Shown here: positions 19,331 to 51,078 of the stretch, in pieces
Layout: each line of letters starts with the position of its first letter
How positions within the stretch are numbered: the first letter of the stretch is position 1
Origin: Candidatus Eiseniibacteriota bacterium
GTDB lineage: Bacteria; Eisenbacteria; RBG-16-71-46
NCBI GenBank assembly: GCA_031370785.1
Contig: JANMQY010000004.1
Span: 1 to 59,086 of the forward strand
Length of the DNA: 59,086 bases
Direction: 5' to 3'
The notes under the pieces: generated by a model
Database searches by the model: none
What the model was told of the DNA's origin: nothing
What the model saw: the letters and a program-made list of their open reading frames with translations, nothing else
Made by a program: the position numbers and the translations under genes

Positions 19331-19999
19331 TCAGCGCGACGGCCGCCGGATCGGCACCGTGACCGTGACGGTCGGCGGATCCATCGTGCACCAGTCGGGC
19401 AGTGCCTCGGGACTGACTTCCACTCGCACCGTGTCGCGCTTGCCGTCGATGCGCACCGGGGCGAGCACCAGGCTGTCGAGCCTGCGCACCGCGGTCTCCG
19501 GCCCGATGATCGTGACGTAGGGCGGCATCACGTACGCGGTCGAATACGCGTCGGGCCCGAAACCCGGAACGCCCTCGACCCGTGCGGCAACCGGCACGCG
19601 CCGGCGGATCTTGCGGTCGAGCTGGAACTCGAGAATACGCGGCCCGACGACGCGTTCGACCTGCAGGCCCTCGTTGGCGGCGACCGGAAGATCCTCGGCG
19701 CTCACCGCGCGCTCGAACCGCCCGCGCCCGACACCGGCGAGCGAGATGCGGAGCACCGGCTCGCTCAGGCGCACCCGGATCAGCTGCTTGCCGGTTCCGC
19801 GCAGCTCGGCGAGCACCGCGGAAGGCACCGGACCCGAGAGCGCGAGCGAATCACCGATGTCGGTGACCTGGATCGGGAACGAGACCGTCATCCTGGCCGG
19901 CCGGTCGGTATACACATTGAGATAGACCAGCACCGCGAGCAGCAGCGCGACCAGCTTGAGCCCGAGATTGTCGAACAGCAGTCCGCGAAGCAGACTCAT
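19331..19999 (-). CDS. CdaR/YbbR-like membrane-anchored protein
   Basis: N-terminal DNLGLKLVALLLAVLVY anchor, then beta-rich repeats with V.I.GPE and PPTVTVTV. Confidence 0.72.
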   Translation of the reverse strand: MSLLRGLLFDNLGLKLVALLLAVLVYLNVYTDRPARMTVSFPIQVTDIGDSLALSGPVPSAVLAELRGTGKQLIRVRLSEPVLRISLAGVGRGRFERAVSAEDLPVAANEGLQVERVVGPRILEFQLDRKIRRRVPVAARVEGVPGFGPDAYSTAYVMPPYVTIIGPETAVRRLDSLVLAPVRIDGKRDTVRVEVSPEALPDWCTMDPPTVTVTVPIRRPSR

Positions 20000-21417
20000 G
20001 CATCGGCTCCCTGCGCGGCATCGGCCGCTTCGTCCTCACCCGCCTCTTCGCCTTCGCCCGGCTTTCTCAGTCCGTGGCGCTCCATGCGTGAATAGAAGGT
20101 ACGCCGCGTGAGCCCGAGCAGTCGCGCGGCCAGGCTCTTGTTGCCGCGCGCCATCTCCAGCGCCTGCACGAGCAGCTCGCGCTCGAGCACTTCGAGCGAG
20201 AGGCCTTCGGGCGGGATGCGCGGCACCCAGCCGACGCCGCCCGGGCCCGGCTCGGCCGCCTCGGGCCTGGCGAACGACAGGTGCTCGACGCCGATCGTCT
20301 CGCCGCCGGCGAGGATCATCGCGCGCTCGAGCGTGTTCTCCAGCTCGCGCACGTTCCCCGGGAAGGCATAGCGCTCGAGCGCGCGGAGCGCGTCGGGCGT
20401 CAGCTGCTGGGCCGAGGAGCCGTGATTCACGAGGAAGTATTCGGCGAGGCCCGCGATGTCACCGGGCCGCTCGCGCAGCGCGGGCAGCCGGATCGGGAAC
20501 ACGTTCAGGCGGAAGAACAGGTCCTCGCGGAACTGGCGCGCGCGCGCCATCTCCTCGAGGTCGCGATTGGTCGCGGCCACGATGCGGGCGTCCACCGTGA
20601 TCGGCTGATTGCCACCGACGCGGGTGAAGGTCTTCTCTTCGATCACCTGCAGCAGCTTGACCTGCAGGCTCATCGGCATCTCGCCGATCTCATCCAGGAA
20701 GATGGTGCCGCGATGCGCGTTCTCGAAGCGGCCCGCCTTCTGCCGCACCGCTCCGGTGAACGCGCCCTTCTCGTGGCCGAACAGCTCGCTCTCGAGCAGG
20801 TTCTCGGGCAGCGCGCCGCAGTTCACTTTGACCCACGGCCCGGCCGCGCGCCGGCTCGAGAAGTGGATCGCGCGCGCGAACAGGTCCTTGCCGGTCCCGC
20901 TCTCGCCACGCAGCAGCACCGTCGAGTCGGTGGGCGCAACCTTCTGCGCGAGATCCACCGCGCGCCTCGTCGCCGGCGCGTCCCCGACGATGGTGGCGAG
21001 CCCCTTGCGCAGCGAATCAACGGTGCTCTCGAGCCGCGCGTTCTCGGCGGTGAGGGCGCGTTCGCGCTCGATGCGGGCGAGGATCGTGCCCAGCTCCTCG
21101 ACGAATTCGCCCTCCTTGGCGACGAAGTCGGAGGCCCCGCCGCGCAGCGCCTTGCGCGCGCTCTCGAGCGAGCCGTACGCGGTCATGAGCACGACCGCGG
21201 TCGCGGGCCAGCGCTTGCGCACCTCGGCAAGCAGCGCGAGGCCGTCGGGCGGCGGCATCAGCAGATCGGTGATCACGGCGTCGAATGGGGCGGCCGCGAG
21301 TTGCTGGAGCGCGGCGCCCGAGCCGTTGACGAACGCGGTCTGATGCCCCGCGTCGCTGAGGGCGAGCGCGGTCAGCTCCGCGTTCTTGATCTCGTCGTCG
21401 ACCACCAGCACTCGCAA
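19996..21417 (-). CDS. Sigma-54-dependent response regulator (NtrC/AtoC family)
   Basis: Receiver (VVDDE, ITDL), [38 protein letters not shown], Fis-type HTH. Confidence 0.96.
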
Positions 21418-40080: not shown

Positions 40081-40908
40081 TCAGCGACTGGCCAGCGCGA
40101 TCGCCCGGCGCGCCCGGGGCGCGCCCTCGTCGCGCACCTTCTTCTGGCGCAGCTCAGGGTTGGCGGGGTCGGCCTGATAGGCCCAGTCGAAGGTCACCTG
40201 GGTCGTGCTCAGGGCCGTGGCCCGGAACTTTGCGTAGTGGTTGTCGAAGGTCCAGACGACGTAGCAGTGCCCGGGGACCAACTCCACCATGCCGCTCGGC
40301 GACCAGCCGGCGCTCGGGGCGACGTCCACTGCGTCCAGCGAGGTGGCATACCCGGCGTCCTGGATATCGGTGTCGGTGAAGGGGCAGATCATCGACGGGA
40401 TGCCGCTCGAAGTGGAGAAGTACACGTCGGTGGCCGGATCGTCAGCCGCCCGGACGGAGTAGGCCGAGAAGTCGTAGCCGGCGGTGGCGGGATCCGTCGC
40501 AGCATTGCTCAGCACGCGCCCGAATCCCTCGGGGCGCGGAGTGTCGTAGATATAGATGTCGTCGTAGCCCAGGGCGCTTTCGTTTCCCGCGCGGTCGACC
40601 GCGGCCACCGCGAAATACCGGGTCACGCCGTTGGCGAGCCCGGTCACGACGAACGCCGTCCCCGAGGTGAAGCCGATCGGATCGTACGGGCAGCTCGAGC
40701 CGCCAGCGCACGCCGACTCGTAGATCCGGTAGCCGGCCAGATCGCCTTCGGTGTTCGCAAGCCAGCGCAGGGTGACGCGATTGTCGCCGGTCACGCTGTA
40801 GAACCCGCGCACCGCGGCCGGAGGATGCAGATCGCGCGGAGAGGTCTGGTCGTCGCAACCCGCAACCAGACCGAGAACCGCGAGCAGGATGAGCCAGAGC
40901 CTCAACAT
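40081..40908 (-). CDS. Lipoprotein with fibronectin type III-like domain
   Basis: Lipobox LVAG-C, then VTLRW..NTEGDLAGYRIY...GLANGVTRYFAVAAVDRAGNES. GGAGG RBS. Confidence 0.85.
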   Translation of the reverse strand: MLRLWLILLAVLGLVAGCDDQTSPRDLHPPAAVRGFYSVTGDNRVTLRWLANTEGDLAGYRIYESACAGGSSCPYDPIGFTSGTAFVVTGLANGVTRYFAVAAVDRAGNESALGYDDIYIYDTPRPEGFGRVLSNAATDPATAGYDFSAYSVRAADDPATDVYFSTSSGIPSMICPFTDTDIQDAGYATSLDAVDVAPSAGWSPSGMVELVPGHCYVVWTFDNHYAKFRATALSTTQVTFDWAYQADPANPELRQKKVRDEGAPRARRAIALASR

Positions 40909-40960: not shown

Positions 40961-40976
40961 GGCAACCCATGTGCCA
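40961..40976 (-). promoter_or_regulatory. Sigma-54 promoter of the lipoprotein gene
   Basis: Minus strand reads TGGCACATGGGTTGCC, about 50 bp upstream of the ATG. Confidence 0.8.
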
Positions 40977-41043: not shown

Positions 41044-41083
41044 AAGAAGAAGCCGCCCCCGGTGCTAGGAACCGAAGGCGGCT
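41044..41083 (-). terminator. Intrinsic terminator closing the structured RNA region
   Basis: Minus strand reads AGCCGCCUUCGGU-loop-ACCGGGGGCGGCU-UCUUCUU. The U-G pairs form only on the minus strand. Confidence 0.7.
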
Positions 41084-41461
41084 CTGGTGTGCGCAGCAGT
41101 CGCAGGTGTGCGAGCGCGCTACACCGGTGAGTGAATCGGGACATCGGGTCGAGCTGCACGTGACAACAGCCGAGACATCCCCCAGTGTTGGCCTATGTCA
41201 CGATCGAACCGATGTCCCAAACTACGAAAAAAAACCCGCCGATGGTGGGGCCGACCTTGGTCGGCTGGTTGCGTCCTGCTTCGGCCACTCCATCACCGGG
41301 ATCGAAGTGCACGTTCCAAGCTAGCCGGTCGTAAAGGGCGGTGCGTTGTCATATGACTGGGGCTCGTACCCTCGACCGGACCCCTCACTGCACCGGCTAG
41401 CCCAGATTGTGGATCGACAACTTGCGCCGCCGATCTTTTTGGAGGTCCCCCCCCTCCGCGG
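41044..41461 (-). ncRNA. Candidate ~420-nt multi-hairpin non-coding RNA, not matching any family I recognise
   Basis: Seven consecutive stem-loops lie between a sigma-54 promoter and a terminator. G-U pairs consistently favour the minus strand, there is a GCAA tetraloop, and no ORF has a credible RBS. Confidence 0.65.
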
Positions 41462-41471
41462 AAGATGTAAG

Positions 41472-41487
41472 AGCACCCCGCGTGCCA
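41472..41487 (-). promoter_or_regulatory. Sigma-54 promoter driving the structured RNA
   Basis: Minus strand reads TGGCACGCGGGGTGCT with correct GG/GC spacing. Predicted +1 (~41461) is at the foot of the first hairpin. Confidence 0.72.
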
Positions 41488-41806
41488 TACGCGCGACAGT
41501 CGCCGAGAAAGTTCAGACGGGACTGTGCCGCAAGGTGTTGGGCCACTGAGCCGCTTCGCGCTTCGTCGAGAGTTCCGGGCGCACGGGCACGCAGAACCGA
41601 AACAAAACCGCGACGATTCGGGGCTCACTCGCTAAGCCGCTGAATGGCAACGCCCTGTCTATAAAGGTTCTTGCCACTCGTTTCATAAAGAGAAGCATCA
41701 GACCGGCGCGGCGCACGAGGCGACAGACGCTGCGCGGCACAAATGCGCGAGCGGCGGATGCGCGATGCGCGCCCGCCGCTCGAAAGAAGCTCAGGGATGG
41801 ATTTCG

Positions 41807-44800
41807 CTAGACGTTTCGCCGGCGCTCGAGGCCGAGGGTGCGGATCTTGGCGAGGAGCGTTGGATAGCTGAGCCCGAGCTCGCGCGCCACGCGCGCCTTG
41901 TTCCAGCGATTGGTCTCGAGCGCATCGGCGATCATTCGCTTCTCGAGCTGCGAGACATTGCTGCGCAGGGTCTTCCCCGTCGGGCGTTCGACCGCGGTGC
42001 GCTCGGCGGCGCCGGGACACATGTCCGGCGGAAGCAGCGAGGAGACGAGCGTATCGCCTTCGTCGGCGAGCACGACCATGCGCTTGACGGTCTTCTCGAG
42101 CTCGCGCACGTTGCCGCGCCACTCGTGCTCGAGAAAGATGCGCATGACATCGGGCGCGAAGCCCTTCAGCGTCTTCTCCATCTGCCGCGAGTAGAGCGCG
42201 AGGAAGTGCTGGGCCAGGACCGGAATGTCTTCCCGGCGTTCGCGCAGCGCGGGCACGCGCACCGTGATGTCGTTGAGCCGGTAGTACAGATCCTCGAGGA
42301 ACCGGCCGGTCTTGATACGCTCGCGCAGGTCGCAGCCGGTCGCGCAGATCACCCGCGCGTTCACCTTCTTGTTGCGCGTGGCCCCGACCGGGCGGATCTC
42401 GCCCTGGTCGAGCACGTGAAGCAGCTTGGCCTGCACCGACTCCGGCACCTTCTCGATCTCGTCGAGGAAGATCGTGCCGCCCTCGGCCTCTTCGAACAGT
42501 CCGGACTTGTCGCGTGCCGCGCCGGTGAAGGCGCCCTGCACATAGCCGAACAGCTCGCTCTCGAGCAGCTGCTCGGGGAGCGCTGCGCAGTTCACCTGCA
42601 CGAACGGCCCGTCGCGCCGGTTCGAGATCTCGTGCACGACCTGGGCGAGCAGACCCTTGCCGGTTCCGGTCTCTCCCATGAACAGCACGGTCGCGGTGCT
42701 GTCTCCCACCTTGTTGAGCAGGCTGAGGATGTTCGCCATCTCGCGCGCCTGGCTCACGATCCGATCCGCGCCCGGACTCGGCTTGAGCTTGTCGCGCAGT
42801 TCGCGGTTCTCGGCCAGCAGCAGCGAGCGCTGCGCTTCGACGATTGCAACGCCGGTGCTGTTGGCCAGCACCGCGAGCAGGTTCAGCTCGCGCTGGCGGA
42901 AGGCGCCAAGCAGGTTGTCGTTGAGCCGGTCCACGTACACCAGGCCGACCGACTGCGAGGGGAAGTTGAGCGGCACGCACACCAGCGAGCCGACGCCTTC
43001 GAGGGCGTCCACCAGCGCGGCGCCGAAGCGCGGATCGGCAGCGACCCTGCTCGAGAACAGTGGACCGTTCTCGGCGAGACGGTTTCCCGCGACGCCTTCG
43101 ATCACGCGCAGCACGCGGCGCGCGCGGTCACGGCCGAGGCCATGCTGCGCGACAACATCGAGGCGACCGCCGCCGCTGCTGAACGCGACGAAGCCGCGAT
43201 CCCCGCCGGCGTGCTCGACCGCCAGCCGCACCGCCTGCGCGAGAAGCCCGTCCATGTCGGAGGTCTCGCGGAACAGGCGGTTGGCATCTTCGAGCGCGCG
43301 GAACTCGTTACAGGTCGACAGCGAGACCGCGACGTACTGGCGCTCGAGCTCGCGACGCAGCTCGGCCGCGCGCTCCTCCGCCTCGGGCTGGCCACCCGCC
43401 GTCGGGCCGCCGTCGGCCAGCCACTGTTCGCTCTGCTCGAGAAGCGAGAGGGCCTGGTCGTAGTGCTCGCGTTCGGCCTCGAGTCTCGCAAGCGAGAGGA
43501 GCGCCTCGGCGGCAAGGGGGACCAGCCCGAGCTGACGGAACAGGGTCGTGGCACGACGGCTCGCGTCGATGACCGGCTCCAGCGGAACACGCAGCCGCGC
43601 GCTGGTCGGCAAAAGCAGCAGGTACTCGGCCCACGCCGCGAGCGTGACCGCGTGCTCGTAGACCTCGCCCAGCTGATCGAAGCACAGCGACGCATCGCGC
43701 AGCTTGAGCTCGCACGCGGCGGCATTGCCGCGCACCGCATCGAGGCGGGCGAGCGAGCGCTGGGCGAGCGCCTGCTCGATTCGGTCCCCGAGGCGCTCGA
43801 ACATCGCGGCGCCGTGGAGCAGATGCGTCTGTGCTTCATCGACGCGGCCGGCGTGCAGGAGCGCCAGTCCGTATCGGGTCTCGAGCTCGGCGGTCAGATC
43901 GCCCTGCGGTGTGATCGCGCGCGCGTCGGCCAGCGCCGGCTCGAGCAGCAACAGCGCGGCCGCGACATCTCCGCGGTCCAGCTCGAGCTCACCCAGGAAT
44001 TCGCGGGCCAGCACGTTCTCGCGCTGCACGCCCACCTGCTGGGCGAGCTGGAGCGCGCGCTGGAAGTGCGAATGCGCCTGCTCGAACTGGCGGCGGCGGC
44101 GGCACAGCAGGCCGAGCGCCATGAGCGCCATCGACTCGCCCTGCAGGTGGCCGGTCTCGCGCGAGATCCGCAGCGACTGGCGGAAATTCTCCTCCGCAAG
44201 ATCCCACTGTCCGAGTCGGTAGCGGATCAGGCCCAGGTTCTGGCAGTGCCCGCGCATGCGCGCGTAGAGGCCGGCGCGCTCGTCGAGGCGCAGCGCCTGC
44301 TCGAGGAACCGCGTCGCTTCGCGCCATTCGCGCAGGTTCTTGTAGACCAGCCCGAGGTTGTTGAGCGCGGTCACCAGCCCGTCGATGTCGTCGATGCGGC
44401 GGAACGTGGCGGCCGCGCTCTGCAGCCACTCGATCGCCTCGGTCGGCCGCCCGAGCCGATTCACGCAGATTCCGAGGGTCATGCTCACCTGGCCTACCGT
44501 GCGATGGTCGTCGGTGTCGCGCAACACCGCGTAGGCGTACTGCGCGTAGCGGCGGCCGGAACGATAGGAGGCGAGTTCGGTGAGCAGGTGTGCCGCGCGG
44601 GCAGCGATTCCGGCGTTGAGCCGCGTGTCGTGGAGGATGCGGGCGTCGCGCCGGGCTTCGCGCGTCAGGCGCAGCGCAGTCTCGAACTCGCCGCGCCGCA
44701 TCTCTGCCTCGGCCAGCCGCGTGAGGATTCGCACGCGCTCGGAGGGCATGTTGGCGCCAACCAGTTCGAGGGCGGCGGTGTACTCCTCTACCGCGCCCGC

Positions 44801-44908
44801 GAAATTGTCAGCGGCCAGATGCAGATCTCCGATCGACTCGCGCTGCCCGACACCATCTCGAAGCGTGCCGGGGGCGTGAGCCAGCTCGGGGGGGATCGCT
44901 CGCTGCAC
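41807..44908 (-). CDS. TPR-GAF-AAA+-HTH sigma-54 enhancer-binding protein with no receiver domain
   Basis: About 550 aa of TPR-like helices ([17 protein letters not shown]), a GAF domain (SLVCVPL...VGLVYVD), [42 protein letters not shown]. Confidence 0.92.
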
Positions 44909-45005
44909 TTTTCGAACCCTCGAATGACGGACACCCGGTGAAAGCCACGGCGGTTCGTTCCGCGACTTCGTTTGCGACCGGTGAGGTGAACCCGGACTAC
45001 AGCCC

Positions 45006-45326
45006 TTACTTGATCACCCTCAGGTAAAGCGCCGCCCAGATCCTACTGATCCACTGAACCCGCGCGAACCCACGCAAAGTCACGCCGTACGAACTCTCTT
45101 CACGCGGTTCGGCGACGACCCGAACCACGGGAATCGTAGGAGTCTTGCTGGGGCTGTCGGGTTCCGATGATGTCTGACCCACGCCGGGCTTTTGAATCGT
45201 GCCCACGGGTGCGCCGCCACCAACGTCGTCACCATAAGACGACGAGGCACGCGCCCCCTGCGCGGTGATCGAGATCACCGAAAGGAGGACCAGTGTGACC
45301 AGGAGTCTGTTGCAATTTTTCCGCAT
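45006..45326 (-). CDS. Small secreted protein / peptide precursor (106 aa)
   Basis: GGAGGGAG precedes ATG 45326. Signal peptide MRKNCNRLLVTLVLLSVISITAQGARA, a low-complexity G/S/P core, and a cationic Trp-rich C-terminus. Confidence 0.7.
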   Translation of the reverse strand: MRKNCNRLLVTLVLLSVISITAQGARASSSYGDDVGGGAPVGTIQKPGVGQTSSEPDSPSKTPTIPVVRVVAEPREESSYGVTLRGFARVQWISRIWAALYLRVIK

Positions 45327-45479
45327 GCGCTGCCTGCTCCCTCCACGACTGGCGGTAAAAGAAAACCCATGACCCTGTCGGGCCGGAGGAGTCCTGACAG
45401 GCTCTTTGCGAAAAGTGAGGGGACCTTTACCAGCGCCGGGAACAGTATCCGCCCTGCCCCGAACAACCGTCAAAGACTT

Positions 45480-49713: not shown

Positions 49714-49717
<4 letters not shown>
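48191..49717 (+). CDS. HAMP sensor histidine kinase (NtrY-like)
   Basis: Two TMs, a HAMP domain, AAWREVARRLAHEFKNILTP, NLIINA, DRGAG, STKKRGSGLGL. Confidence 0.92.

Positions 49718-51078
<1,361 letters not shown>

Follow-up and report, generated by a model that had tools for sequence, protein, structure and literature searches.

A modular structured RNA behind a sigma-54 activator gene in Candidatus Eiseniibacteriota, with predicted pairing to the mRNA of its upstream operon

We analysed a locus on contig JANMQY010000004.1 of a Candidatus Eiseniibacteriota genome (GCA_031370785.1); the window is the whole stretch analysed, 59,086 nucleotides (nt) long. Read along the minus strand, the locus holds a gene for a small secreted protein, a gene for a sigma-54 activator, a sigma-54 promoter, a structured RNA (41044-41461) and, behind a second sigma-54 promoter, a cluster of genes for exported proteins. 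The structured element is very probably a true RNA gene and represents an undescribed family outside Rfam. An earlier note, made from the sequence alone, had described it as an unrecognised RNA of seven consecutive hairpins. Its promoter and parts are as follows.

41473..41487, minus strand: RNA promoter of the sigma-54 -24/-12 type; TGGCA and TGC unchanged throughout 20/20 homologues, 29-30 nt ahead of H1
41441..41457, minus strand: H1, 5′ hairpin with a 5-bp stem and a G-run loop ending in GA; the deepest-conserved unit and a predicted seed
41412..41435, minus strand: H2, hairpin of variable sequence; mean z -3.0 in 20 homologues
41315..41406, minus strand: H3, 15-bp basal stem with three G-U pairs, a middle stem and a three-way junction; order-specific
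41235..41300, minus strand: H4, variable region; sequence not conserved, mean z -1.2
41138..41218, minus strand: H5, long hairpin with apical GGGGGAUGU and a G run at 41183-41179; the second predicted seed and the usual 3′ module
41087..41124, no strand assigned: 'H6', two tandem imperfect palindromes, in 47/54 loci
41044..41083, minus strand: terminator-like hairpin; the likely 3′ end in the present genome, missing from several homologues

All seven hairpins fold at the minus-strand positions that had been claimed for them, and H2 has the 10 bp, the GCAA loop and the three G-U pairs described earlier. The earlier note had proposed comparing the fold with shuffled controls on both strands. The 418-nt stretch reached -203.6 kcal/mol on the minus strand (z -6.2), with 0 of 100 shuffles equally stable, against z -4.7 on the plus strand. 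The note had also argued from G-U pairs for the minus strand, and the homologues agree: among 20 of them, the H3 helices had 89 G-U and 15 A-C cells, and the H5 helices had 55 and 4, respectively. Such an excess is what an RNA from the minus strand would show. In 19 of the 20, H3 was more stable on the minus than on the plus strand. The predicted transcription start near 41461 agrees with the spacing of the sigma-54 promoter.

Covariation among homologues, another check proposed earlier, was assessed in plain MAFFT alignments of the 20 homologues with 500 shuffles and slid controls; the relatedness of the aligned homologues inflates such tests. Compensatory changes were found in H3 and H5. In H3, 93% of cells were paired and 8 pairs were altered on both sides (0-4 of 500 shuffles reached the observed values); in H5, 91% were paired and 15 pairs were altered on both sides (0 of 500). 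Slid controls for both remained below 50% paired. The basal stem of H3 was nearly invariant in sequence. H1 was invariant in most families, with pair 5 changed from G-C to A-U in 3/3 genomes of family f12 (f1, f2, f3 and so on are family labels, which for loci from the all-species scan described below were assigned by likeness). Across families, the parts held constant were the GGGGGA-type G-rich loops of H1 and H5.

The Rfam scan suggested by the earlier note gave no match at or above gathering score in the window (Rfam 15); at E<=10 there were three matches in the window, all at chance level. Four distant homologue loci likewise gave no match at or above gathering score. The judgement that this is not a housekeeping RNA was upheld, with RNase P, 6S, signal recognition particle RNA and tmRNA each found above cut-off on other contigs of the genome. 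A repeat or miniature inverted-repeat transposable element (MITE), named there as a possible refutation, is opposed by the occurrence of a single copy per genome, at one locus. None of the papers listed in our literature searches deals with such an RNA.

A DNA search detected the element in 24/24 genomes of the family and in 27/41 relatives, and an all-species scan detected at least 119 stretches, mostly titled Ca. Eisenbacteria. A pattern of promoter plus H1 occurred in 50 of the phylum's 61 genomes, with one copy in each, and a control pattern in none. The model of H3 matched 39/39 f1, 4/4 f3 and 0/107 other genomes, and with filters off also 3/3 f2 loci. The model of H5 matched 36/39 f1, 4/4 f3 and some genomes of f5, f6, f7, f10 and f16. 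The f3 tallies for these models, for CsrA and for the H1 pattern take in the unpublished genome G026, which is not used for any claim at the level of sequence. Six contigs titled as other phyla (L099, L117, L126, L133, L136 and L155) carry an Eisenbacteria-type cassette and are possibly mislabelled or mis-binned. Relaxed-pattern matches in one f17 and one f13 genome had no adjoining activator and were set aside as chance-like.

The RNA is modular, and its units are separable by lineage. In f10 and f16, a gene for a 488-amino-acid (aa) AAA-ATPase-like protein (Walker motifs recognised by eye) separates H1 from H5 (L064, 4134-5516 region; L066, 3837-5303; L214, L215, L222 and L223). There, H5 is 1.7-1.9 kb from H1, past a coding gene, so that H1 would be the 5′ leader and H5 the 3′ end of an mRNA. 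In f11, the locus carries a different 135-nt RNA made of H1 and one long hairpin of another kind (L090, L110, L117 and 12 more). This hairpin has an invariant 7-nt loop and covaries strongly, with 14 pairs altered on both sides. In f7, the G run of H1 is lost and the degenerate loops retain GGA.

Not all parts of the 418-nt stretch belong to the conserved RNA. H4 was barely above shuffles in stability and variable in sequence, and the distance from H3 to H5 ranged from 77 to 155 nt among homologues; the notion of H4 as a conserved RNA element was dropped. The U8 noted earlier after H4 exists in the window but is not conserved among homologues. H6 did not hold up as an RNA helix, with no compensatory change in 16 anchored loci and variable positions that disrupt pairs. 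Its position varied less relative to the downstream sigma-54 promoter (standard deviation of the distance, 11 nt) than relative to H5 (33 nt). That promoter and the gene behind it are as follows.

40962..40976, minus strand: second sigma-54 promoter, of the lipoprotein operon, in 20/20 homologues
40081..40908, minus strand: lipoprotein-like gene with a weak Fn3 match, heading the exported-protein cluster

From these comparisons, H6 probably acts as DNA, as an enhancer of the downstream promoter, and not as a structure in the RNA. Its palindromes are of the TGT-N11-ACA kind known from sites of sigma-54 activators. Helical phasing gave R 0.55-0.62 relative to the promoter and 0.39-0.48 relative to H5, which is only suggestive, and no second copy of the motif was found ahead of sigma-54 sites in the present genome. 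Two further sigma-54 response regulators with histidine kinases flank the locus, at 19996-21417 (minus strand) and 49714-51078 (plus strand). Either could bind the putative enhancer.

A U-rich tract (at least 4 U within 10 nt) lies 3′ of H5 in 45/54 loci. Because H6 follows the downstream promoter and lacks compensatory change, and because the U-rich tract usually follows H5, the conserved RNA is, as judged by these comparisons, H1 to H5, about 330 nt long, with a range of 306-384 nt among homologues. The tract is missing in the present genome, so the RNA may extend there to the terminator at 41044, for about 420 nt. What stood of the earlier description is a novel structured RNA on the minus strand; a single scaffold of seven hairpins did not stand, as H6 is DNA-like, H3 is confined to one order and the modules are separable.

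Small shares were present in five RNA runs, and the four examined were all contigs. Two of these contigs (26.7 and 3.0 kb) span the whole 1.6-kb locus at about 92% identity, for which a DNA origin is possible. Short contigs of relatives cover H3 and H5, a weak hint of transcription.

The genes and control sites upstream of the RNA are as follows.

41659..41692, minus strand: AT-rich block, conserved in an alignment of 20 upstream regions and some 170-200 bp ahead of the RNA promoter; candidate activator binding site
41807..44908, minus strand: TPR-GAF-AAA+-HTH sigma-54 activator of 1033 aa (Pfam)
45006..45326, minus strand: small secreted protein of 106 aa, unannotated, with a signal peptide, a short G[ED]xD core and a tryptophan-rich C-terminal tail
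45445..45473, minus strand: sigma-70-like promoter (TTGAC, 17 nt, GATACT), putatively of the small-protein/activator operon

Among the matches listed, 80 loci had flanks, and in 77 of these the RNA promoter came immediately after the activator gene. Of the three exceptions, two were cut by contig ends and one was a chance match. The same arrangement was found in all 11 distant loci examined. In L084 and L086, tblastn aligned the activator in two pieces that meet near residue 280-325, suggesting a frameshift or an assembly error. By a simple pattern, the genome has 51 sigma-54-like sites. The same sigma-70-like boxes precede the small open reading frame (ORF) in 23 f1/f3 loci.

The small protein is present in most distant families and has no Pfam match. 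Among 29 aligned homologues its one invariant aspartate is in the G[ED]xD core, and this core occurs twice in some f10 proteins. It is a candidate signal precursor and may be a ligand of the activator's TPR region. A comparison of that region with the peptide core scored 0.12 against a mark of 0.32, which is neither support nor counter-evidence; the PDB matches of the TPR profile were generic TPR proteins. In the spacer between small ORF and activator (window 44925-44975, minus strand), many f1 genomes carry a conserved hairpin and an ACCGGG motif, partly complementary to an H4 motif. Downstream of the RNA, the exported-protein cluster includes a DUF4384 protein, an HtrA-type protease and an amidase.

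The G-rich loops of H1 and H5 have conserved C-rich complements in the mRNA of the upstream operon. Two sites were predicted in the present genome.

45417..45426, minus strand: site A, C-rich and complementary to H1, in the 5′ leader roughly 99 nt ahead of the small ORF
44888..44896, minus strand: site B, ATC CCC CCC at activator codons 5-7, usually in a predicted C6 hairpin loop

The site A sequence GGUCCCC was present in 19 of the 23 f1/f3 leaders, at -90 to -106, with variants in the other 4; the background was 29/2721 genes. At site B, codons 5, 6 and 7 were ATC, CCC and CCC in 18/18, 18/18 and 17/18 full-length f1 activators. CCC makes up 29% of proline codons genome-wide, and RTCCCCC occurs within the first 30 nt of 8/2756 genes. 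The activator start ranked 14th among the 1267 start regions scored, of 2810 called.

Complements were also present in distant families, whose sequences were read by eye. C-rich complements of H1 or H5 were seen in leaders of f6, f10 (4/5), f12, f15 (2/2), f16 (1/2) and f18. Close to the activator start, C-rich complements were seen in f2, f5, f6, f12 and some f18. Three lineage-specific cases fit pairing, as far as sequences tell. The f12 variant of H1 has an unusually long complement near the activator start, with a score of 12.5 where the common H1 scores 8.5 (one locus). The f11 loop is the best site other than a G loop and pairs, by prediction, with an invariant ribosome-binding spacer in 10/12 loci (background 41/2756); this pairing exceeded 95% of controls in 7 loci, and three loci were dropped for short flanks or a missed start. 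In f7, where the G run of H1 is lost, neither the leader nor the activator start showed a C-run.

On balance, we favour the explanation that the RNA pairs with the mRNA of its own upstream operon. The adjoining TPR-GAF activator would turn on the sigma-54 promoter and thereby the regulatory RNA, which is modular and about 330 nt long (here up to about 420 nt). Its long stems would expose the two G-rich loops of H1 and H5, which would first kiss and then pair with the C-rich sites in the small-protein/activator mRNA, one in the 5′ leader and one at activator codons 5-7. Such pairing would be chaperone-independent, with no need for Hfq; Hfq (PF17209) was not found in the present genome, which is 100% complete. 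The most likely outcome would be damped activator output, a negative feedback as in LuxO-Qrr. Repression is favoured over activation on the analogy of Qrr and because the footprint of the initiating ribosome has its edge at site B. Activation by freeing the ribosome site was tried for both sites and rejected: for site A the predicted gain exceeded 1 kcal/mol in only 6/23 loci, and for site B the mean change was 0.6 kcal/mol. Two extra contacts in f1 were rejected as well. A loop of H4 with a site near -30 was the best non-G site in 8/20 loci and above 95% of controls in only 4, and a loop of H3 with the ribosome site was not above controls.

Further C-rich targets of the RNA are likely. A C-run near the start occurs in 54/2756 genes genome-wide. 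An RNA-polymerase-omega-like gene (G000:C46:8764-8964) and a phosphoribosyltransferase-like gene (C17:60909-61460), both named by eye, each have a C-run just after the start and are candidate targets.

Several observations weigh against pairing with the operon mRNA. The genomes are kin, so that counts across them are not independent. The RNA-run data are contigs and give no ends, strand or level of the RNA. The leader alone ranked only 92nd of 2060 scored for H1, and only 5/34 activator start regions exceeded 99% of background. Site B could reflect a codon or protein constraint, because 2 of 12 other invariant proline columns are also CCC-rich (16/18 and 14/18), and the conserved mRNA hairpin at this site lacks covariation. 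A C-run is missing at the activator start in f10, f15 and f16 and in the leader in f2 and f5, and f7 retains the H5 G loop yet shows no visible target. Occupying site A or B barely altered predicted access to the ribosome site, so that energy models favour no sign.

Other explanations of the conserved loops and stems were weighed. The loops might serve as a protein decoy, titrating CsrA through their GGA or binding some other protein with affinity for G-rich RNA; CrcZ and RsmZ are precedents for such decoys. CsrA is encoded in the present genome, FliW and Hfq were not found there, and the H5 loop ends in GGAUGU, which resembles the CsrA selection consensus; the GGA kept in the degenerate f7 loops would also fit. 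An orphan csrA follows trpA (G000:C102:23033-23191, L025), and CsrA was found in 128/151 genomes of the class. Still, we give the decoy a small chance. A CsrA-sponge role is weakened because canonical G loops persist where CsrA was not found (0/8 f10 and 0/1 f6 genomes); conversely, f8 and f14 have CsrA and no H1 match. There are two conserved loop GGAs only, against many in a Csr/Rsm sponge RNA, one f2 H5 loop has none, and the five to eight conserved G exceed what a GGA requires. According to PMC13443453, moreover, Eisenbacterial CsrAs are seldom predicted to be functional on a B. subtilis reporter. A decoy would also leave the conserved complements unexplained. Another explanation, compatible with pairing, is that RNase III or another nuclease processes a precursor into separate small RNAs of H1, H3 and H5. 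It agrees with the separable, lineage-specific modules, with the distance between H1 and H5 in f10 and f16 and with the nearly invariant basal stem of H3. Pxr, whose gene is laid out in a similar way, arises from longer forms by processing (PMC10217877). One relative's 346-nt contig, in which no transcript ends can be seen, holds H3 and H5 together; we regard processing as possible, though doubtful.

The H1 letters and site A might instead be a DNA operator that occurs twice, once in each orientation, a short way past two transcription starts, with the RNA acting otherwise. Both do lie shortly after predicted starts, and the H1 stem is invariant in most families. However, the G run differs in length, the f12 stem change is compensatory, and site B is within coding sequence; H5, 120-1900 nt away from the start, shares the G loop, and a separate complement of H5 is present in the leader of f6. 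An operator is therefore quite improbable in our view. It is more improbable still that this is a single large RNA with a global fold, serving as scaffold or catalyst, or a tRNA-like or Y-like RNA: the conserved three-way junction of H3 and its f1 loop, which is T-loop-like, would suit such a role, but that loop varies freely in f2 and f3, TROVE/Ro60, the partner of Y RNA, was not found, H3 is missing outside one order, and the modules are separable. Untranscribed DNA palindromes, a repeat or a MITE are hardly credible: the DNA-like H6 and the RNA-run data, which are contigs only, would agree with them, whereas the covariation tolerates G-U on one strand, the promoter is invariant at a fixed spacing and each genome has a single copy.

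The RNA predicted to pair with its operon mRNA was compared with known systems. In CbrB-CrcZ of Pseudomonas, an RNA of about 400 nt has a sigma-54 promoter behind the activator gene, and CrcZ is an A-rich sponge for Hfq/Crc. The present RNA resembles it in length and in the position of its promoter but differs in its conserved motifs, which are G loops on covarying stems, and no Hfq was found. In LuxO-Qrr of Vibrio, transcription of a small RNA depends on a sigma-54 activator, and this RNA represses the activator by pairing with its mRNA (PMC2632942). Like Qrr, the present RNA is complementary to the mRNA of its own predicted sigma-54 activator. Unlike the Hfq-dependent Qrr RNAs, which exist in several copies, it is single-copy, much longer and G-rich in its loops, in a genome where Hfq was not found; its activator carries TPR and GAF domains, unlike LuxO. 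Pxr (RF01812) with PxrR in Myxococcus is likewise a multi-stem RNA whose sigma-54 promoter comes directly after the activator gene; it has an essential first loop and longer precursors (PMC5684412, PMC10217877 and PMC5568312). Unlike the present RNA, Pxr is 108 nt long and has a two-component regulator as activator. RF01812 gave no match at the locus even at E<=10, and its top score anywhere in the genome, 22 bits against 80, was on another contig, with no hit on this one. In 6C RNA of Actinobacteria, C-rich loops pair without chaperones, so that both RNAs have homopolymer loops as chaperone-independent seeds in a high-GC genome (PMC6486639). The polarity is reversed, with G loops and C-rich targets here, and promoter, size and lineage differ, with no Rfam match. 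In brief, the RNA works, by prediction, most like LuxO-Qrr, is laid out like PxrR-Pxr and mirrors the 6C seeds, and it is a member of none of them.

A wider role is conceivable but unlikely: a phylum-wide cassette for cell-to-cell signalling, in which the secreted G[ED]xD peptide would be sensed by the activator's TPR region and the G-loop RNA would pair back on the mRNA of signal and receptor, with seeds co-evolving by lineage. If true, it would combine, within an uncultured phylum, RRNPP-like peptide-sensing TPR receptors with an RNA loop of the LuxO-Qrr type.

This work adds an RNA family missing from Rfam and conserved across most of an uncultured phylum, with exact RNA-mRNA pairings predicted that can be tested without culturing the organism. 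If the pairing is true, G-rich kissing loops would be Hfq-independent seeds, the mirror image of those in 6C and other C-rich RNAs, and feedback between a sigma-54 activator and an RNA would have arisen anew in a lineage remote from Vibrio, perhaps with a peptide signal at its centre.
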